Origin: an uncultured bacterium
GTDB taxonomy: Bacteria > Krumholzibacteriota > Krumholzibacteriia > WVZY01 > JAKEHA01
NCBI GenBank assembly: GCA_964621155.1
Contig: CAZULB010000001.1
Coordinates: 10,402-74,401, forward strand
Reading direction: 5' to 3'
DNA: 64,000 nt
Of the stretch, positions 46,371-57,239 are shown one piece after another. Position 1 is the stretch's first letter, and every line of letters begins with the position of its first letter. Both the position numbers and the translations under genes were made by a program. The notes under the pieces were generated by a model. That model was not told where the DNA came from. It saw nothing but the letters and a program-made list of their open reading frames with translations, and did no database searches.

Positions 46371-49300
46371 TTACGCGACTTCGAACAAATGGTCTTCGGA
46401 CGGATTCTCGGCCGGGATGAGCGCGGCGCTGGCACGGGCCGCCGCATCCTCGTGTTCGACCACACGCTCGCGCCACTCGTCGCGGAGCTTGTCCTCACGG
46501 TAGCGCTTGAGAAAATAACCGATGGTCTCGACGCGAATCTTGATGGACCCGGCCGGGCGATTCTCGTCGAGATCCTTGAATGAGTAGTACGGCGTGCCCG
46601 AGCGTTCGATGATTTCTTCCACCACGCTGTAGATGGGGGCGTCGTGGCCGCACTTGAAGTTGGACACCTCGAGAGCCACGAGGTTCGGGTGCCGTGCGGT
46701 GTACTTGGCGGCCCACACCTTGCGTGACGTGTTTTCGCTGTAGGCGTTCTTCCACACGTCGCTGATGTCCATGGGGTGCGCGATATCGCCAGCGCGGACT
46801 TCGTCGCCGAACAACCAGTCCAGGATGTCGTCGTCGATGGGAAGTGAGTCCTGCGTGAAGACCGGATAGCCGAGTTTCTGGAACTCGACGAGGATCTCGT
46901 GGTTGATACCGGGGTCGTTGTGATACGGGCGCCCCAGCACCACGATTCCGATCTTGTTCTCACGTTCCAGCTCTTCCAGCACCTCACGCGCGGCAGCGCG
47001 CGTCGATACCACGTATTCGTCGAGGGCCTTGAAGCCGGCTTCCGCCGCGCGCTCGTTTTCTTTCTCCGAAATCCCGAGCACATCCTTCCACGCCGCGAAC
47101 ATCTGGCGCGCGAACAGGTGCGGCTGCGCGACATTCACCACCGGGCAGAGATACTGGATGCCCTTCTTGGCGAAGGTGTCACCTTCCTTGGTGAAGGCGG
47201 CCTTCACGGCCTCCGGCGTGGCCGTGACCGTCGGGCACGCGCGGCAATCCTGCGCCTTGTAGATCTCGCTCTTCAGGTCGTCGATCATGGGGAAAAAGAT
47301 CGCGTCCAGCGGCTTCTTCTCGTGCTGTTTGAAAATCAGATTGTGCACGTGCGGAATGCCGAGCTTGCTCGGGAAGCACGGGTCGATGGCACCGCGCTTG
47401 GCGCCTTCCTTATAGAGGTCCTCGGTGGTGTAGTCCGAGTACACGAGGTTATGCGGACGAATGCCGAGCGACTCGAAGTACGCCGAGAAGAGCGGATTGG
47501 TCGAGTACTGGTTCAGCATGCGCGGAATGCCGATGCGATAACTCTCGCGCTTCTTCATCTGCTCGATGCGCGCCTTTTGCCCGCTGGTGAAGGCGTGCTT
47601 CGGGAGCGGATCCGCCACACTCTCCGGCTTGAAGCTCTTGAACACGTCGCGAGCGCTCTTCTCGATGAAGTTGGGCGCAGCCTTGAGGCGCGCGTCGAGG
47701 TCCTTCTTGATCTCGCGCATCGACTCGACGTCTTCGACGAGTCCCTTCTCGCACGAATTATTGACGATCAGCCGCCGCGCGCCCGGCATGAGCGGCACTT
47801 TCGACTTGCGTGCGCCCGCGGTGGCGCTGGCGGTGTCGACTTCGCCCTGCTCGCGCTTGATGGCTTTCTTCGAAGCCTCGACGTCGATGAACGTGCGCAG
47901 GCACTCGTTCTTGCAGAAGTGGCAGCGCGTGTCTTCCGACGTGTGCGTCGTGTAGGAAATGGTCTGGATGGCGTCGAGCCCGATGAAGCTGGTTATACGC
48001 CCGTTGGCGTGCAGGCGCTGCGCTTCCAGTGCCGCGCCGATGGCGCCGCTTTCGCCGCAGTGCTTGTGCACGATCACTTCGGGCAAATCGTCGGCCGTGC
48101 CGCGGAAGCGCGATGAGATGAAATCGACCTGCGACTTCACCGCGGCCAGGTTTCTCTGTGTGCCGCCCTGCAGCACGAATTTCTTCCCCAGCTTGGCCAG
48201 GTTGGGGATCTGCGCGACATACAGCCAGATGTTCTTGGGCAACACCGCGGCCAATCCGGCCATGATCTCGCCCGCCGTCCAACCCTGGCGCTGGAAGTCG
48301 ACGATATCCGACTGCATGAACACCGCGCAGCCATAACCGAAGGTCGGCATCTGCTCGGCACCGAATGCGGTGTCGGCGAACTTCTCCACCGGGACACCGA
48401 ACTCGCCCGCCGTGCTCTGGAGGAAATAGCCGTTCCCCGCGGAACACTGCGTGTTGAGCTTGAAGTCTTTGACGCTCCCGTCTTTGAGCACCATGATTTT
48501 GATGTCCTGGCCACCCACGTCGCAGATCACATCCACGTCATCGTAGAAATGGAGCGCGCTCTCGGCGTGCGCCACGGTTTCGACGATGGCGGCATCGGCG
48601 GCCAGCACATCGCGCAGGACGTCTTTGGCATAGCCGGTCGTGCCCACGCCCAGAATTTCGAGGCGGGCGCCGAACGATTCGACGTGGCGCTGGATGTCGC
48701 CGATCACCTCGATGGTGTCCTTGATGGGATTGCCCTTCGAGAGCTGGTAGGCCTTGCAGATCACTTCACGCGCTTCATTGACGAGCACGGCTTTGGTGGA
48801 GGTGGATCCACCATCCAGGCCGATGAAGGCTCTCACGACTTCGCCGGGCGCAAAGGTCGCGGGCTCGAAGGGCTCTTCCCGATAGCGTTCCTTGAAGCTT
48901 GCGAGGTCGGCGGGATCTTTCGAGAGTCCGACGCTCGCCTTGGCCTTGCTCTGCTTGCGCCCGACGTTGATGTACTCCTCGAGCGCGGTCCACCCTTTAT
49001 AGACACCGACGCCTTCGTCCTCGTCCTTGCCATACTCGACGGCGCCGAGGGCGGCGTAGTACTGCGCATTCTGCGGCACCACGATGAGCGACTTGGGATC
49101 AACGCCCTCGGGCAATTTGACCTCTCGCTCTTTCCACGTGATGGGAATGTTGTGCTGCCATGCTTCGCGCATGCCGCGGATGTAGGTATTGGGTCCGCCC
49201 AGCAGAATGACTTCGGGACGAAGCGTGTGGCCGCGCGTCAGTACCGAGAGATTTTGTCCGATGATGGCCTCGAACAATGAGGCCATCAATTCTTCGGTGG

Positions 49301-49886
49301 GAATGCCCTGTTTCTGCAGGCCGTTGATGTCGGTCTCGGCGAAGACACCGCACTTCCCCGCCACGTGGTGCAGCTTGACCCCGTTATAGCCCTGCTCGCA
49401 CAACTGCTCGGGAGGAATGCGCAGCTTGGCGTTGATCTTGTCGATGACGGCACCGGTTCCACCCGCGCATTTGTCATTCATCGACGGAATCTTCTTCTTG
49501 CGGCCGGTCTCGGGGTCTTCCTTGAAGACGATGATCTTGGCGTCCTGTCCGCCCAACTCGATCACGGAACCTGCGGCCGGATGCACCTTCTCGACGGCGA
49601 GACACACCGCGTTCACTTCCTGCACGAACTTGGCGCCCAGTTTGGGCGCGATGTTCATGCCGCCGCTGCCGGTGATGAACACGCAGGTTTCCCCCGCCGC
49701 GGTGGCGGCGCGAAGCCCGTCGACTTCTTCGTCGATGCGCTTGAGGAACTCGAGAACTTTTTCGGGTTGTTTGGTCTCGTGGCGCTGGTAGTCGTGCCAC
49801 ACCATGGCGTCCGTAGCGGGATCGACCACGACCGCCTTGACGGTCGTGGAGCCGACATCCATGCCAATGAGGAACCGGGCAGCCAT
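46371..49886 (-). CDS. CoA-substrate-specific enzyme activase (two BadF/BadG/BcrA/BcrD-type ATPase domains) fused to a 2-hydroxyacyl-CoA dehydratase-like domain
   Basis: N-terminus FLIGMDVGSTTVKAVVVD and second copy FIGLDGGSTSTKAVLVN (acetate/sugar-kinase fold ATPase). The 1171-aa architecture matches COG1924+COG3580/3581 fusions. Confidence 0.75.
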   Translation of the reverse strand: MAARFLIGMDVGSTTVKAVVVDPATDAMVWHDYQRHETKQPEKVLEFLKRIDEEVDGLRAATAAGETCVFITGSGGMNIAPKLGAKFVQEVNAVCLAVEKVHPAAGSVIELGGQDAKIIVFKEDPETGRKKKIPSMNDKCAGGTGAVIDKINAKLRIPPEQLCEQGYNGVKLHHVAGKCGVFAETDINGLQKQGIPTEELMASLFEAIIGQNLSVLTRGHTLRPEVILLGGPNTYIRGMREAWQHNIPITWKEREVKLPEGVDPKSLIVVPQNAQYYAALGAVEYGKDEDEGVGVYKGWTALEEYINVGRKQSKAKASVGLSKDPADLASFKERYREEPFEPATFAPGEVVRAFIGLDGGSTSTKAVLVNEAREVICKAYQLSKGNPIKDTIEVIGDIQRHVESFGARLEILGVGTTGYAKDVLRDVLAADAAIVETVAHAESALHFYDDVDVICDVGGQDIKIMVLKDGSVKDFKLNTQCSAGNGYFLQSTAGEFGVPVEKFADTAFGAEQMPTFGYGCAVFMQSDIVDFQRQGWTAGEIMAGLAAVLPKNIWLYVAQIPNLAKLGKKFVLQGGTQRNLAAVKSQVDFISSRFRGTADDLPEVIVHKHCGESGAIGAALEAQRLHANGRITSFIGLDAIQTISYTTHTSEDTRCHFCKNECLRTFIDVEASKKAIKREQGEVDTASATAGARKSKVPLMPGARRLIVNNSCEKGLVEDVESMREIKKDLDARLKAAPNFIEKSARDVFKSFKPESVADPLPKHAFTSGQKARIEQMKKRESYRIGIPRMLNQYSTNPLFSAYFESLGIRPHNLVYSDYTTEDLYKEGAKRGAIDPCFPSKLGIPHVHNLIFKQHEKKPLDAIFFPMIDDLKSEIYKAQDCRACPTVTATPEAVKAAFTKEGDTFAKKGIQYLCPVVNVAQPHLFARQMFAAWKDVLGISEKENERAAEAGFKALDEYVVSTRAAAREVLEELERENKIGIVVLGRPYHNDPGINHEILVEFQKLGYPVFTQDSLPIDDDILDWLFGDEVRAGDIAHPMDISDVWKNAYSENTSRKVWAAKYTARHPNLVALEVSNFKCGHDAPIYSVVEEIIERSGTPYYSFKDLDENRPAGSIKIRVETIGYFLKRYREDKLRDEWRERVVEHEDAAARASAALIPAENPSEDHLFEVA

Positions 49887-50391: not shown

Positions 50392-53300
50392 CTATTTGAG
50401 CAGTACCATCTTCTTCGTGTCGACGAACTCGCCTGCGCGCATGCGGTAGAAATACACGCCCGAGGCGACGCGCTGTCCGCGATCGTCGTCTCCATCCCAG
50501 TGCACTGACCATGATCCTGGGTTGCGTCGCTCGTTCACGAGCTCGCGCACGCGGCGTCCGGACACGTCATAGATCGAGATGTTCACATCGGCGCCACCCG
50601 CGGGCACGTCATACGTGATCGCGGTAAGCGGATTGAACGGATTGGGAATGTTCTGCCCCAACGCGAACGCGAGCGGTCGATTGCCGGTACCGGTCGGCAA
50701 GAGATGGGGCTTTACGACGACCACGTGCGACGCCGCAGTAGTGGCGAGGAATCCAGGAATGGTCGCCGAGACAGTGACGCTGCCAGGATTCAGCGGACCG
50801 AACTCCACACCGCCGAGCACCGCCGACGCCGCCGATTGCGACTGGCCGGCCGGAATCGCCACGACGACTGGTGAGCCATTCAGCGCATCTGTGACGAGCG
50901 TCGCGAAACCAAGATCGGATAGCGACACCGTCGCATTCAGCGTCGGGCCGCCGGGGCGCACGAACTGCGGAGCCCCGACAGTGGCCTGATCACTGCTCGC
51001 CGTGCCCACTCGTACCACGAACGGATCATTGGGATCATTGTCCATGATTGAATCCGGCAAGAGCGCAACCTGCAGTGCAGGTTGCACCACGTTCGCCACG
51101 CGAACGCCCGAGGTGAAGGTGGGCACGCTGGCCGAGACCGTTGATGTGCCCATCGCAACACCCTGAACGTAAAAGGAAACCTGTGTGCTCCCGTTCGATA
51201 GCGGGAAGTCCAGCGAAGCCGTCCCCGGCGTGGAGAAATTAGGGGCAAGCAGTGCGACTGATGGGTCGCTGCTCGCGACGTGCACCGTAACGCCACCGTG
51301 CTGGGCCAGTCCCAACACCGCGCTGATAACACCGCTCTGCAATCCCTCCCCGACATCTTCAATGGCTCCCATGGTAACGATACGCTGCGAAACGACCACC
51401 TGCTGTGTCGCCGCGCCCATCGGCGTGAAGCCCGGGATGGTCGCCGCCACCAGCGTTGTCCCGGGCCCGAGCGGATCGAACGCGACGCCGCCGGTGGCAA
51501 CGGTGGCACCCGACGATGACGCGCCAGCCGAAATGTTGACCGTGACCGATGCGCCGGTGGCAGGCGTCGTCACCAGCTGACCGGCGACCGCGTCGGTGAG
51601 AGTGATGGTTGCGGTCACACCCGGACTTCCGGCGCGCACCGACTGCGCGGGATTGACGGACCCATTGCCGCTCGCGGGCAGTCCCACGCGCACCTGGAAC
51701 GGGTCGTTGGGATCCGTGGCGTCGAACGCCGCGGCGAGACCGATCATGTCGAGCGCCGGTGTGACGATGGTCGCCGTCTGGCTCGCCGAGATGAACCCGG
51801 GCGCCGACACGGTGATCAGTGACGTGCCCGTCACGTTCTCCATTCCCGAAACGTAGAACGTGGCAGTCGCGGATCCGTTGGCCACGGATAAATCGATGGA
51901 GGCGCTGCCCGCCGTGCTCGCGTTCGGCGCCACCAGCGCGACCGATGGGTTCGCGCTTGCGATGTGCGCCGTGACGCCTCCGTGATTCGACACGCTCAGT
52001 GTGGCCGAGTTCCCCGAGTTCTGAAGGCCGGCGCCGATGGTCCCCAGCGCACCGAGAGAAATGGTCGGTTGCGTGACGGCCACCGTCTGACTGGCGGCCG
52101 TGGTCGTAATGAAACCAGGAATCGTGGCGGAGACCGTGGTCGATCCGAGCGCGGTCCCGTCAAAGGCGACGCCGCCCGTCGCGACCGTCCCAGGCGACGT
52201 TGAATTTCCGGGGGTGATTGATACCACCACCGAATCTCCGGTGAGCGGCGTGGTGATGAGGTCGCCGACCGGATGGCTGGAATTCTTGATGGTGGCCGTG
52301 AGGGGGACACCCCCCGCACGAATGTTTTGCGTTGAATTCACGCTGGTGTTGCCCCCGGATGGCAATCCGACGCGGACATAGAACGGGTCGCTCGGAGCGA
52401 GCGTGTCGAGGGTTGTGACCAGACCGCTGATGTCGAGCGCCGGCTGCACGACGGTCGCCGTCTTGCTCGCCGAGGTGAACCCGGGCGCCGACACGGTAAT
52501 CAGTGATGTGCCGGTCACGTTTTCCATGCCGGAGATGTAGAAGGTCACACCGGTGGATCCGTTCGGCACGAACGCGTCGAACGAGGCGTTCCCCGCGGTG
52601 GTTGCGGTGGGAGCCACGAGGGCCACGGATGGGTTGGCGCTTTCGACGTGCACCGTCACGCCGCCGTGCTGCGACGCGCTCAGCGTGGCCAAGTTCCCCA
52701 AGCCCACAAGACCCGAGCCGACATTGGAAATTGCGTTGAGCGTGATCACGGGCTGCGTGACGGTCACCGTCTGACTGGCGTTCGTCGTCGCTATGAAACC
52801 GGGGATGGTGGCGGACACGGTGGTCGAGCCAAGCGCGGTCCCGTCGAAAGCGACGCCGCCAGCCGCGACGGTCGTCGGCGAGAAGTAAGAACCGACGGGG
52901 ATCGTCACCGTGACGGAGTCCCCGGTGAGGGCCGTGGTGATGAGATCGCCGACCGCGATTGCGGAATTCTTGATGGTGGCCGTGACGGGGACACCCCCGG
53001 CACGAATGCTTTGCGTCGGATTCACGCTGGTGATACCGCCGGATGGCAGGCCGATCGTGACCCAGAACGGGTCCACGGGATCGAGCGTGTCGAGGGTGGT
53101 GACCAGACTGCTGATGACGAGCGCGGGTTGCTGAACGTTTGCGAGCCGGCTGGCGTTGCCAAAGCCGGGCGCGGAAACGGTGATCAAGGAAGCGCCGCTC
53201 ACTCCTTCGAGACCCGACACGACGAACGACGTGCCCGTGAGCCCGTTGGCAAGGAAGATGTCGATAGAAGCAGTTCCGACGGTCGTTGCATTGGGCGAGA

Positions 53301-54189
53301 CCAACGCCACCGACGAATCGGCGCTCTCCACGTGAATGGTCACGCCGCCGTGCTGCGACCCGCTCAGTGTCACCCCATTGGCCAAACCCTGCAGACCCGA
53401 ACCCACGTTTCCGATTGCATTGAGCGTGATCACGGGCTGCGTGACGCTCACATTCGCGCTGGCCGCCGCGGTGGCAATGAATCCGGGAATGCTTGCCGAC
53501 ACCGTGGTCGACGCGACGTTCAGGCCGTCAAAGGCCACACCGCCCGCGGCAACGCTCGTCGGCGAATAGTAGAGACCGGGTGTGATAGAGACGGTGACCG
53601 TCTGGCCCGTAAGGGGCGTGGTAATGAGCTGCCCGGCGAACGCGTTCGAGTTGACGATCGTTGCCGTGAGTCCCGTGCCGCCGATGCGCACGCTTTGCGT
53701 TGGATTCACGGTGCCGTTGCCGCTCGATGGCAACCCGATCTGGACCCAAAACGGGTCCGCAGGATCGAGCGTGCCGATGGAGGTGACCAGGTTGGAGATG
53801 GCGACCGCCGGCTGAACAATGGTCGCGGTCCGGCTCCCGCTGGTAAACCCGGGCGCCGACACCGTGATCATCGCGGTGCCGGTGACGTTCTCCATGCCCT
53901 GAACAACGAATTGCACGCTGGATGACCCGTTGGGGACAAACACGTCGAACGATGCGCCGCCGGCGGTGGAGATGTTGGGCGCGACCAGAACCACCGACGG
54001 GTTGTCGCTCTCGACGTGCACGGTCTTGCCCCCGTGCTGCGACGTGCTCAAGGTGGCCGTGTTGGCGCTGCCCTGGAGTCCGCTCCCCACATTGGAGAGC
54101 ACGGGCACAGTGATGGTTTGTGCACGCGCGTTCGACGCCGCGAGCGTGCCCAGGAATGCAATGACAAGAATCAGCGGTGAGCGTTTCAT
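50392..54189 (-). CDS. Giant secreted repeat protein (5 x ~230-aa tandem domains) with T9SS-type C-terminal sorting domain
   Basis: Signal peptide MKRSPLILVIAFLGTLAASNARA. Repeated blocks begin (I)T(V/L)..(S/G)NVGSGLQG...SQHGG(K/V)T(V/I)HVES.DPSVALVAPN. C-terminus NPFNPLTAITYDV...ISIYDVSGRRVRELV...GVYFYRMRAGEFVDTKKMVLLK. Confidence 0.7.
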   Translation of the reverse strand: MKRSPLILVIAFLGTLAASNARAQTITVPVLSNVGSGLQGSANTATLSTSQHGGKTVHVESDNPSVVLVAPNISTAGGASFDVFVPNGSSSVQFVVQGMENVTGTAMITVSAPGFTSGSRTATIVQPAVAISNLVTSIGTLDPADPFWVQIGLPSSGNGTVNPTQSVRIGGTGLTATIVNSNAFAGQLITTPLTGQTVTVSITPGLYYSPTSVAAGGVAFDGLNVASTTVSASIPGFIATAAASANVSVTQPVITLNAIGNVGSGLQGLANGVTLSGSQHGGVTIHVESADSSVALVSPNATTVGTASIDIFLANGLTGTSFVVSGLEGVSGASLITVSAPGFGNASRLANVQQPALVISSLVTTLDTLDPVDPFWVTIGLPSGGITSVNPTQSIRAGGVPVTATIKNSAIAVGDLITTALTGDSVTVTIPVGSYFSPTTVAAGGVAFDGTALGSTTVSATIPGFIATTNASQTVTVTQPVITLNAISNVGSGLVGLGNLATLSASQHGGVTVHVESANPSVALVAPTATTAGNASFDAFVPNGSTGVTFYISGMENVTGTSLITVSAPGFTSASKTATVVQPALDISGLVTTLDTLAPSDPFYVRVGLPSGGNTSVNSTQNIRAGGVPLTATIKNSSHPVGDLITTPLTGDSVVVSITPGNSTSPGTVATGGVAFDGTALGSTTVSATIPGFITTTAASQTVAVTQPTISLGALGTIGAGLQNSGNSATLSVSNHGGVTAHIASANPSVALVAPNASTAGSASIDLSVANGSATATFYVSGMENVTGTSLITVSAPGFISASQTATIVTPALDMIGLAAAFDATDPNDPFQVRVGLPASGNGSVNPAQSVRAGSPGVTATITLTDAVAGQLVTTPATGASVTVNISAGASSSGATVATGGVAFDPLGPGTTLVAATIPGFTPMGAATQQVVVSQRIVTMGAIEDVGEGLQSGVISAVLGLAQHGGVTVHVASSDPSVALLAPNFSTPGTASLDFPLSNGSTQVSFYVQGVAMGTSTVSASVPTFTSGVRVANVVQPALQVALLPDSIMDNDPNDPFVVRVGTASSDQATVGAPQFVRPGGPTLNATVSLSDLGFATLVTDALNGSPVVVAIPAGQSQSAASAVLGGVEFGPLNPGSVTVSATIPGFLATTAASHVVVVKPHLLPTGTGNRPLAFALGQNIPNPFNPLTAITYDVPAGGADVNISIYDVSGRRVRELVNERRNPGSWSVHWDGDDDRGQRVASGVYFYRMRAGEFVDTKKMVLLK
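50650..54117 (-). repeat. ~690-bp tandem coding repeats (about 5 copies) within CDS 50392..54189
   Basis: Protein periodicity of ~230 aa. The antisense plus-frame ORFs (around 51.6, 52.2, 52.9 and 53.6 kb) recur with near-identical translations. Confidence 0.6.
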
Positions 54190-54261
54190 CGTAGAACCTC
54201 CCTCAGCGCGCAGATTTCGGGTCGGGCGGAAACGCCGATTTCATTTCCGTCCACTCGATCT

Positions 54262-54573
54262 TCACGTGTATCCGTTCTTGAAGTTTTCCCACACGCTTGT
54301 CGTACCCGAGACGATGCCGGCGTGGGCAACCGCCGGGAGCGATTGCAGGTATGCGAGCGCGCGGACCGCAATCGTGTTGGGACTCTCTGCGCTCCACCGC
54401 TCCACCTGCCCGGCCACCAACCCGAGATTCTTCACCCAGGCGCTATCGCCACTCGTCACGGTCCCGCCGCCGCCACCTCCTCCGCCCCCGTCGTCCTTGG
54501 GTTCGGTACTGTTGTTACCGGAGCAAGCGGCGAAGACGACAAGAACAAAAAGGACGAGCGTTTCATGTGGAGC
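54262..54573 (-). pseudogene. Truncated N-terminal paralogue (about 100 aa) of lipoprotein gene 57251..59329, with an apparent 1-nt frameshift in the signal-peptide region
   Basis: ATG AAA CGC at 54573 reads MKRSS... in one frame. The downstream homologous frame (LFVLVVFAACSGNNSTEPKDDGGGGGGGGGTVT...TIAVRALAYLQSLP) aligns to MKRFALFLLIVFAACSSDNGTAPKDPGGGGGGGGGGAVT...SIAVRAAGYLSQQP of the intact gene and stops after ~100 aa. Confidence 0.35.
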
Positions 54574-54575
54574 AC

Positions 54576-57239
54576 CTACTTGAGAAGAACCATCTTCCTG
54601 GTTTCGACAAAATCGCCCGCCCGCATGCGGTAGAAGTACACACCCGACGCCACGCGCTGGCCGCGATCGTCGTCGCCATTCCATTGCACGGACCAGCTTC
54701 CCGGACCGCGGTGCTCGTTGACGAGTTCACGCACCCGCGCACCCGCGACGTCGTAGATCGTCATGTTCACGTCCGCTCCCCCCGCCGCCACTTCATAACG
54801 AATGGTGGTCTGCGGGTTGAACGGGTTGGGAACCGCCTCGTGCAATGCAAACTTGAGGGCGGGCTTGTCGCCCACCGCGGTGGCGGCCCCCGCGCCGATC
54901 ACGAACGGTGAAAGACTTGTCGTCGTGCCACAAATCACGTCGACGTCGGTGTCGAGGAGGGTGGTGATGTTGACCCAAGCGGGTGGATTGAGCGACGCGT
55001 CGTAGTGGAGCAATTGCAGCGATGCCTCGGGCACCGAGAGTGCGAACGGGTCGTACTCGATACACACCTCGATGGTGCCGTTGAAGCTGACCAGGGTGCT
55101 TATGTTGTAGAACCTCCCGTCACCGGCTGTGAAGGACCCGGGGAGGGCCGGGCCGGTGGACGTGACCTCGAGATTGGTTCTGCCCGACTGGGACACGTTC
55201 GCGAACGTGATGCCCACATTGTGCAATCCGCTTCCGTTTTCGTCCCACGGCTGAATGTGCACGTTGTTCCCCACCGGCGTGTTCGGAAGCAGGAACGCGA
55301 CCGTGTTCGAGACCACGCTGCGATTGCAGTTCAGGTCCAGGGCAATCACCGACCAGTACTGATCTGTGCCCCCGGGGTTGGAGATGGTGTAGAGCGTGTC
55401 GGTTGCCGTGTCGTAGTAGCTTTCGAAGGGAGGCTGTACCGGAATCTGACTCATGTAGACGGCGTAGTACATGATGTCGGACGCGGGTCGCGACCAGTGG
55501 AGCTGCAGCAAGCCGGGCGGAACGATGTGCGACGCGAGGACCGACGCCGGCGGCGCGATGTTGTCGAACGAAGTCCCATGCCGGATGTTCGATGATTCGA
55601 GCGAGGAGATGTAACCGAGCACCCGGAAGTTCTGCCCGAATAGCTGCCAGCACGTCGAATCATCCTGGGTCGGTTCGTTGGCGACATAGAGGTCGGTTCC
55701 GTTGTCGTTGATCCAGTCGATTGTGATCCATGCTCCGTTGTCGTTGCGCTGCACCTCGTACAGGTAGTTCTCACCGGGACGGTCGAGATCCTTCCAACGC
55801 ATGGTCACGTGCCGGCCCTCGTCGCCCGGCGTGTCAACGATCGATGTGATAACCGGCTCGGGATTTCCCCACGCTCCGGCCGCACTCATGCGCTGCGCAT
55901 AGGTCTGCGAGGTACCGCTGCGGGCATCCGACCAGGCGATCATGCTGGCGCCGTTGACGCTGGGCGCGATCACGGGGGTGACTTGTGCCCCGGTGGCAAG
56001 ACAGACTTCGGAGCCTTGCAGCACGAAGAAGAGATTGCCGAGCGCATCAACGCGGCGCGCATAGATGTTGTCTCCCGCGACGCGCTGATCCTGCCAGGTG
56101 ATGATGGCGCCGTTGGAGCCGTCGGTCGTCAGGGTGGGCGCAACCTGGTGGCCGGACGCGGTACAAACCGCAACTCCATCGGCTGTCCACAGGGCGGTGC
56201 CGCTGGCGTTCACGCGCCGGGCGTAGATGTCGGCATTGCTGAGGCCGTTGCGCATGTCGCGCCAGGTCGCGATGCCGCCGCCTGCGCCGTCGGCAATCAA
56301 GATGGGATCGTACTGATCACCGAGCGAGCCACAGAGCACCACGCCGTTCGCGGCCCACAGCATATTGCCTGCGCCGTCGGTGCGCTGGGCCCAGATATCG
56401 GTGTGGGAGATGCGTCGATCCTGCCACACGACGATGGCGCCACCGGCACCGTCGGAAACAATCTTCGGGACATTCTGACTCGCGCCCGCGTTGCAGACGA
56501 TGACTCCGTCCGCGGTCCACAGCGGCGTTCCGCTGGCGTTCACGCGACGGGCGTAGATGTCGGCCTGCAGACTGCTGACGCGCTCATCGTGCCACACCAC
56601 GATGGCGCCACCCGCGCCGTCGGATGCGATCGAGGGACCATCCTGGTTGTTCGCTGCGGTGCACAACGCAACGCCGTTCGTCGCCCACGCCCGCTTGCCG
56701 TCCGAATCGTAACGCGCGGCATAGATGTCCGCGCTGCCGCTGCGCGTGTCGTCCCACGCGATGATGGCCCCGCCCGCGCCATTCGACGCAATCACGGGGT
56801 GTGCCTGCGTGCCGGTCGCCGTGCAGACAGCGACCCCGTTGCCGGTCCAGGCCGACTTGCCGGACCCATCTACTACCTGCGCGAAGATGTCCCCGGTGGC
56901 GTTACGCCCGTCTTCCCAGACAATGATCGCTCCACCCGCACCATCGGCGATGATCGCGGGATTGATCTGATCGCCGGCCGCGGCGCAAATCGTTGCGCAC
57001 CACACGGTGTTTCCCGCGGGAGTAATCCGGGACGCGACAATGTCGTAGGCTCCATTACTCGCGTCGCCCCACGCGATGATGGCTCCGCCGGCGCCGTCAG
57101 AGGCGATCGCGGGTGCCTGCTGCGCCCCCGTCTTCGCGCACGGCGGAAGGCCGTTGATCACCCATTGTGCGTTCGCGGTCGCGATTGCCACAACGCACAC
57201 AAACGCGGTTGTAAGTATCAGGGTTGCGTGCCTCTTCAT
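54576..57239 (-). CDS. Secreted protein with 8 tandem ~47-aa repeats (DGAGGAI[IV]xW...DIYAxRV...GV.VCTA) and T9SS-type C-terminal sorting domain
   Basis: AGGAG RBS. Signal peptide MKRHATLILTTAFVCVVAIATANA (ATG 57239). C-terminus NPFNPQTTIRYEV...MTIYDVAGARVRELV...GVYFYRMRAGDFVETRKMVLLK. Confidence 0.7.
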   Translation of the reverse strand: MKRHATLILTTAFVCVVAIATANAQWVINGLPPCAKTGAQQAPAIASDGAGGAIIAWGDASNGAYDIVASRITPAGNTVWCATICAAAGDQINPAIIADGAGGAIIVWEDGRNATGDIFAQVVDGSGKSAWTGNGVAVCTATGTQAHPVIASNGAGGAIIAWDDTRSGSADIYAARYDSDGKRAWATNGVALCTAANNQDGPSIASDGAGGAIVVWHDERVSSLQADIYARRVNASGTPLWTADGVIVCNAGASQNVPKIVSDGAGGAIVVWQDRRISHTDIWAQRTDGAGNMLWAANGVVLCGSLGDQYDPILIADGAGGGIATWRDMRNGLSNADIYARRVNASGTALWTADGVAVCTASGHQVAPTLTTDGSNGAIITWQDQRVAGDNIYARRVDALGNLFFVLQGSEVCLATGAQVTPVIAPSVNGASMIAWSDARSGTSQTYAQRMSAAGAWGNPEPVITSIVDTPGDEGRHVTMRWKDLDRPGENYLYEVQRNDNGAWITIDWINDNGTDLYVANEPTQDDSTCWQLFGQNFRVLGYISSLESSNIRHGTSFDNIAPPASVLASHIVPPGLLQLHWSRPASDIMYYAVYMSQIPVQPPFESYYDTATDTLYTISNPGGTDQYWSVIALDLNCNRSVVSNTVAFLLPNTPVGNNVHIQPWDENGSGLHNVGITFANVSQSGRTNLEVTSTGPALPGSFTAGDGRFYNISTLVSFNGTIEVCIEYDPFALSVPEASLQLLHYDASLNPPAWVNITTLLDTDVDVICGTTTSLSPFVIGAGAATAVGDKPALKFALHEAVPNPFNPQTTIRYEVAAGGADVNMTIYDVAGARVRELVNEHRGPGSWSVQWNGDDDRGQRVASGVYFYRMRAGDFVETRKMVLLK
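55900..57170 (-). repeat. ~140-bp tandem coding repeats (8 copies) within CDS 54576..57239
   Basis: GAGGAIIAW / GAGGAIIVW / GAGGAIVVW / GAGGGIATW / SNGAIITW blocks at regular ~47-aa spacing. Confidence 0.55.

Follow-up and report, generated by a model that had tools for sequence, protein, structure and literature searches.

Remnant of a caspase-like lipoprotein gene between two sorting-domain protein genes: a probable pseudogene left by an internal deletion and a frameshift

Clan CD (separase, the CHAT proteases Csx29/TPR-CHAT, SAVED-CHAT, DdvA, gingipains, legumain and caspases) is the closest known kind for the family of ~690-aa lipoproteins considered here; gene remnants produced by deletion and frameshift are likewise a well-known kind, and their meaning is ordinary. 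A 64,000-nt stretch of contig CAZULB010000001.1 (the window) carries an intact member of this family, the 692-aa protein P0001, and a short segment related to it at 54566..54203; the segment and its neighbours all lie on the minus strand. We read the segment as an ordinary pseudogene, the remnant of a full-length caspase-like lipoprotein gene, with a probability of about 0.85. It combines homology to the family with two independent disabling lesions. An initial annotation of the window had described a frameshifted, truncated copy of the lipoprotein N-terminus at 54262-54573, and had offered three explanations: that the copy is a duplicate in decay, that a sequencing error interrupts a real short lipoprotein, or that the module is truncated deliberately and could act as a decoy or scaffold.

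The segment begins with ATG AAA CGC at 54566..54558 (-), nine bases past the TAG (54578..54576) of the 887-aa gene that precedes it. The frame homologous to the family is offset from this ATG by one base and runs from 54558 to a TGA at 54264..54262 (-); it translates as LVLFVLVVFAACSGNNSTEPKDDGGGGGGGGGTVTSGDSAWVKNLGLVAGQVERWSAESPNTIAVRALAYLQSLPAVAHAGIVSGTTSVWENFKNGYT followed by a stop and includes the peptides NLGLVAGQVER and ALAYLQSLPAVAHAGIVSGTTSVWENFK. Encoded in it are the h-region of a signal peptide, a lipobox Cys (TGC 54525..54523), a Gly run (54489..54463) and, in the ~64 residues past that run, most of a small N-domain. The lipoprotein signal, lipobox Cys and Gly-rich linker of the family (C15 invariant) are recognisable as LVLFVLVVFAAC-SGNN...GGGGGGGGG, a stretch which is out of frame with the sole start codon.

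When the missing base is restored, the 101-aa product is 51% identical to residues 1-100 of P0001 (BLASTP, E 2e-22); this bears out the likeness in lipobox, poly-Gly and N-terminus that had been noticed initially. Against the 32-member family profile, the N-terminal piece matches positions 4-101 with E 2.8e-35. An artefact of the Gly run was considered and rejected: with the signal peptide and Gly run taken out, tblastn across the whole window still gives E 5e-11, and identity to the family member P0022 is 59% over 64 aa. The alignment is consequently better than low-complexity Gly matching, a doubt which the initial annotation had itself raised.

In the DNA alignment with the intact paralogue, ATGAAACGC-TCGTCC stands opposite ATGAAACGCTTCGCC (over a longer span, ATGAAACGC-TCGTCCTTTTT opposite ATGAAACGCTTCGCCCTTTTT). 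A single T is absent at codon 4, and the ATG-AAA-CGC start is one nucleotide out of frame, as first reported. The string GTAGGTG..CATGAAACGC (GTAGGTG..CATG) lies upstream of both the remnant and the intact gene. ATG 54684, the only start in the N-terminal frame itself, was rejected as an alternative: it lies 109 nt inside the conserved sorting domain of the upstream gene and has no Shine-Dalgarno (SD) sequence. A start there would prepend a 42-aa Arg-rich extension to the h-region.

The feature extends beyond this frame. Comparison of the 692-aa protein with the window by tblastn gives a third, weak match, in which the last 21 residues align with 54268..54206, right after the stop of the short open reading frame (ORF). 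The 20-mer encoded here, VKIEWTEMKSAFPPDPKSAR, aligns at the extreme C-terminus of most of 67 family proteins, 0 or 1-3 residues from the end; it matches P0022 at residues 666-685 of 685 (60% identity, E 1e-6) and P0058 with E 9e-8. Among all 1745 six-frame stop-to-stop pieces of the window, the family profile finds this piece at positions 669-693 of 693 (E 7e-4), and matches nothing else besides the intact gene and the N-terminal piece. The conserved C-terminus of the family, ...W..M.P.F.PDPDAAR plus stop, is present, complete with the W, P, D, A and R that are invariant in the family's tail, in a frame which translation does not reach. The N-terminal part of the originally reported extent, 54262-54573, stands; its end has to be moved, as the feature reaches 54203 with 20 C-terminal codons that had gone unreported.

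Since the two pieces match profile positions 4-101 and 669-693, the remnant represents both ends of one full-length gene: 54566..54203 (-) holds codons 1-100 of a family member together with its last 20. N-terminal homology stops at Gly100 (GGA 54273..54271) and C-terminal homology begins at GTG 54265; the TGA that closes the N-terminal frame arises at this deletion junction. The gap covers profile positions 102-668, ~570 codons (roughly 1.7 kb); nothing corresponding to them occurs in the vicinity of the locus, all frames of 54100..54700 included. Translation places the three pieces of the remnant in three different reading frames. Even with the base at codon 4 restored, the frame stops at the junction; a sequencing error, the second of the proposed explanations, could not by itself hide a normal gene.

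The complete N-domain of the family (residues ~38-108, with invariant P106-N107) is not preserved; homology ends at residue 100, and strand 102-105 and the LIIPNNR motif are not in the remnant. P106-N107 is the most conserved motif of the family's N-terminal region. Also missing is the caspase-like domain with its invariant H216-G217 and C298; the predicted catalytic part of the parent family falls wholly within the deleted span.

These features are best explained if a second, older ~690-aa paralogue of the family once stood between the two genes for proteins with type IX secretion system (T9SS) tails. An internal, out-of-frame deletion of ~1.7 kb has taken codons ~101-671, and with them the last part of the N-domain, the beta domains and the caspase-like domain that holds the catalytic His/Cys; the first 100 and last 20 codons now stand side by side in different frames. 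The start codon was uncoupled by another, independent lesion, the loss of 1 nt at codon 4. The segment would now be a transcribed 386-nt intercistronic spacer in a row of co-directional genes, and ribosomes that start at the kept SD and ATG would make no more than a 36-aa nonsense peptide. One reason for the persistence of the 3' end may be that it carries the ribosome-binding region of the 1265-aa gene that follows. The arrangement of stop, ribosome-binding site and ATG after the remnant is that found after the intact paralogue, whose gene ends AKIRWNDITPFFLPDPDAAR-TGA-GGAG...ATG of the 887-aa gene. The segment contains no promoter or terminator matches, no meaningful repeats and no Rfam match at E <= 1.

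The parent of the remnant was not the neighbouring gene. Over the 64 residues past the Gly run, the N-domain is 58-59% identical to P0022, P0026 and P0028, all from other organisms, versus 39% to P0001; in the C-terminal tail, 12/21 residues are identical to P0022 versus 9/21 to P0001. Because both ends are nearest to P0022/P0026/P0028 and far from P0001, the remnant is not a fresh copy of its neighbour. As judged from sequence comparison, both ends come from one parent gene of the P0022/P0026/P0028 subgroup, a second, anciently diverged paralogue. A recent tandem duplication that copied only the 5' end of the 692-aa gene might be suggested by the closeness of the two genes, their shared strand and the similarity of the SD, ATG and signal-peptide DNA; however, the N-domain identities run the other way and such a duplication would not carry a C-terminal remnant, which makes it extremely improbable. 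In the proposal of a decaying duplicate, the decay is borne out (both ends remain and there are two lesions) and the recent duplication of the neighbour's N-terminus is not. The lipoprotein had also been placed downstream of the fragment; on the coding strand the 692-aa gene is in fact upstream.

A scan of the genome collection with the 32-sequence profile yielded three loci. In locus L001, the subgroup member P0026 directly follows a FlgD_ig/T9SS-tailed gene, the same relative place as that of the remnant. Locus L022 contains orthologues of the 887-aa (73%) and 1265-aa (66%) genes with no remnant between the neighbours. A six-frame scan of 22 related loci with the family profile found no remnant consisting of the N-terminal piece or of N- and C-terminal pieces; these loci have one family copy each, complete as far as the contig extends; a further copy, in locus L021, is split.

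The N-terminal piece retains much of the character of a coding sequence. GC content by codon position in its frame is 0.62/0.53/0.76, with position 3 (GC3) reaching 0.80 past the Gly run; this equals the intact genes. Two of the 16 columns that are conserved at >=90% have changed (D to N, A to E), compared with 0-3 in intact members. At the same time, in leave-one-out profile scoring its N-domain shares the bottom place (84.6 bits, against a range of 84.6-118.3 and a median of 103.4 for members), and its mean identity to the family, 0.44, is below that of every member (0.46-0.59). Coding-like GC3 and the retention of most conserved residues point to recent inactivation; relative to the divergence of the family, the gene was probably inactivated fairly recently and may be in early relaxed drift. 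Synonymous sites are saturated, as the nearest relatives are only ~59% identical in protein.

Some observations weigh against a pseudogene. There is little decay in the N-terminal part (98 stop-free codons, GC3 0.76-0.80, 2/16 conserved columns changed), and residual constraint on a translated N-terminal product is possible on these grounds. Spurious ORFs of 100-425 aa are abundant in this GC-rich DNA, so the openness of the 98 codons carries little weight either way. In addition, the 1-nt deletion and the junction are known from one assembly; exact look-up of P0001 and the 887-aa and 1265-aa proteins in a contig index found no independent assembly of the locus on record.

The last point would also favour an assembly artefact, in which a full-length second paralogue exists and the assembler collapsed or skipped its middle and added an indel. 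The source seems to be a metagenome-assembled contig, the relatives are all from metagenome-assembled genomes (MAGs) or metagenomes, and the L021 copy is split into 494 + 195 aa. An artefact is nevertheless very improbable: there is no repeat at the junction to cause a collapse, the two copies in the window are too divergent (39-52% aa) to confuse an assembler, and two unrelated lesions would be required. About eight neighbouring genes match orthologues in other assemblies over their whole length, which argues that the assembly is not riddled with indels. In the split copy of L021 (10001..12069 of a 114-kb ENA contig), one frameshift near profile position 495-500 separates the two parts; this copy is either another pseudogene of independent origin or the product of an indel error in long reads.

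A functional mini-lipoprotein, made up of the signal, lipobox, Gly tether and truncated N-domain, could act as decoy, scaffold or regulator of the full-length lipoprotein; it would be expressed either because the codon-4 lesion is a sequencing error or by low-level -1 slippage on CCTTTTTG. In keeping with this, the SD and ATG are kept, a -1 shift in the T5 run would produce MKRSSFFVLVVFAAC..., which is plausible as a lipoprotein signal, the 98-codon frame is open with coding-like GC3, and most conserved N-domain residues remain. It is unlikely all the same. The stop falls exactly at the out-of-frame junction and the family's C-terminal 20 codons are stranded in another frame; this is the mark of an accident and not of design. 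Strand 102-105 and the invariant P106-N107 would be missing from the product, whose N-domain is the most divergent of the family.

The T5 run occurs in the intact paralogue too, as plain Leu-Phe codons, which argues against an evolved slippery site. Efficient slippage needs a longer run than this. As for a stimulatory RNA structure, none is predicted: the 386-nt segment shows no excess of structure over shuffled sequences (z -0.35). With a T5 run only, no structure and no Rfam match, neither programmed -1 frameshifting nor transcriptional slippage is indicated.

Short homologues were not found in the collections searched. A word-index search with the repaired 101-aa protein returned no stand-alone short relatives. 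A phmmer search with the N-terminal part against 1.84 billion representative proteins gave 11 hits, which are full-length proteins or short ORFs, with no stand-alone short homologue among them. The four short hits (61-195 aa) have the appearance of truncated ORFs. Two of them, P0068 and P0069, run beyond residue 100 into an LLI(I/V)PN motif, while P0070 and P0074 are too short to judge. The absence of short relatives from these collections, together with the loss of the last strand and the Pro-Asn pair, runs counter to the suggestion of a deliberately truncated decoy or scaffold. It is very unlikely, too, that a pseudogene remnant has been co-opted as a decoy, with a lipid-anchored, Gly-tethered domain of ~65 residues still being made; if this were true, the decoy would compete with or regulate the full-length lipoprotein in a conserved locus of TPR-CHAT, extracytoplasmic function (ECF) sigma, anti-sigma and T9SS-cargo genes.

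One of the short hits deserves a separate remark. The database protein P0068 (195 aa) ends in VSYTHLRAHETPEHLVCRLLLEKKKK, a tail which we take to be the translation of a sequencing adapter left at the end of a contig; this public protein record probably includes translated adapter contamination.

The family from which the remnant derives consists of ~690-aa hypothetical lipoproteins (P0001-P0033) from metagenomes and MAGs; named members are few and come from Candidatus Krumholzibacteria or a Latescibacteria-labelled MAG. Neither P0001 nor the remnant matches Pfam or NCBIfam, including CHAT (PF12770) and other curated peptidase families, and the family profile has no match among PDB sequences at E <= 1. 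An AlphaFold2 model of P0001 from a 41-sequence alignment is of high confidence, with a predicted local distance difference test score (pLDDT) of 87.4 and a predicted template modelling score (pTM) of 0.81. In this model, residues 1-37 are a disordered signal and Gly region; the N-domain has helices 40-58 and 64-76 and strands 81-86, 93-97 and 102-105; a disordered linker (111-135) leads to an alpha/beta domain (~160-345), and beta-rich domains continue to the end.

A Foldseek search with the model gives a single hit at E <= 0.001, the TPR-CHAT chain of Craspase. The alpha/beta domain has the caspase/hemoglobinase fold, and a His/Cys dyad is identified by conservation only, with H216, G217 and C298 invariant in 41 sequences. 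There is no Pfam, NCBIfam or PDB sequence match; the link between the family and clan CD is drawn by fold comparison only. The predicted fold and dyad support a clan CD, caspase-like assignment of the parent family, with peptidase activity as a prediction; the label 'caspase-like' in the initial annotation holds to this extent.

The coordinates of the remnant and its neighbours are collected in Table 1.

Table 1. Features of the remnant, the intact paralogue and the adjacent genes (window coordinates)
Feature	Position	Strand	Remarks
Intact 692-aa paralogue P0001	57251..59329	-	Lipoprotein signal, Gly linker, small N-domain, caspase-like domain, beta-rich C-terminal domains
Upstream neighbour, 887-aa beta-propeller-repeat protein	54576..57239	-	T9SS type A sorting domain; domain search
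SD-like AGGTG ahead of remnant ATG	54573..54577	-	Read from sequence; overlaps TAG of 887-aa gene
Kept ATG start of remnant	54564..54566	-	Own frame gives only the 36-aa nonsense peptide MKRSSFLFLSSSPLAPVTTVPNPRTTGAEEVAAAGP, then stop
1-nt deletion site, codon 4	54556..54560	-	DNA alignment: CGC-TCG here vs CGCTTCG in paralogue
N-terminal remnant, 98 codons	54265..54558	-	Frame -1 relative to ATG; profile positions 4-101
Deletion junction	54262..54271	-	Alignments, translation and profile search
C-terminal remnant, VKIEWTEMKSAFPPDPKSAR + TGA (54205..54203)	54203..54265	-	Third frame; profile positions 669-693
GGGAGG ribosome-binding site + ATG (54189) of 1265-aa gene	54189..54202	-	Read from sequence
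Downstream neighbour, 1265-aa tandem-repeat protein	50392..54189	-	T9SS type A sorting domain; domain search

The locus around the remnant is syntenic with other assemblies. The shared order comprises a TPR-CHAT protein, an ECF sigma factor, a ~220-aa anti-sigma-like protein, a variable set of T9SS-tailed proteins plus one family lipoprotein, and a BcrAD/DUF2229 protein. In the three loci examined, the parent family lies near the TPR-CHAT protein and the ECF sigma/anti-sigma-like pair. The BcrAD_BadFG/DUF2229 protein of the window (acyl-CoA dehydratase activase-like, 1171 aa, 46371..49886 (-)) is 86% identical to its counterparts in loci L001 and L003. Conservation is much lower in the adjacent cassette genes (45-73%), and this protein marks the border of the variable region.

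The 887-aa protein contains many DGAGGAI(I/V)xWxD repeats, which weakly match the beta-propeller repeat TIGR04275. Its true start is ATG 57239 (MKRHATLIL…); the listed TTG 57674 overlaps the lipoprotein gene. The 1265-aa protein has about five tandem repeats of ~210 aa (…VSAPGF.S..R.A.V.QPA…). The strand opposite its gene carries a long, spurious ORF of 425 aa (52648..53925), of the sort common in repeat DNA that is rich in GC. The C-terminal T9SS type A sorting domains of the two proteins (54576..54840 and 50392..50650, respectively) are near-identical, with …VYFYRMRAGDFVETRKMVLLK in one and …VYFYRMRAGEFVDTKKMVLLK in the other; near-identical repeats of this kind within 4 kb could allow recombination or rearrangement of the cassette region.

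The segment, a clean case of gene decay, should be annotated as a pseudogene and not as a small lipoprotein. On this reading, the lineage once held two diverged paralogues of an uncharacterised caspase-fold lipoprotein beside genes for T9SS-tailed surface proteins, of which one has been lost. The parent lipoprotein family with its clan CD fold, together with its conserved neighbourhood, is a more promising subject than the remnant.

Compared with clan CD, the parent family shares the invariant His-Gly and Cys (41 members); it differs in having a lipoprotein signal, a Gly tether, an alpha2-beta3 N-domain and IPT-like plus beta-sandwich C-terminal domains. The remnant differs from clan CD altogether in that the caspase-like domain is gone. 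It resembles the ~690-aa family in its signal and lipobox, Gly run, most of the N-domain and the ...W...F.PDP..AR tail before the stop; unlike the family, it has lost profile positions 102-668 and lies in pieces in three frames. The remnant agrees with bacterial pseudogenes formed by deletion and frameshift in these respects: both gene ends are homologous to an intact family, the catalytic core is lost, the start is uncoupled by a 1-nt indel, a premature stop lies at the junction and there are no intact short orthologues. It differs from the typical bacterial pseudogene in nothing essential; it is unusually tidy, with both termini and both ribosome-binding sites kept and only mild decay.
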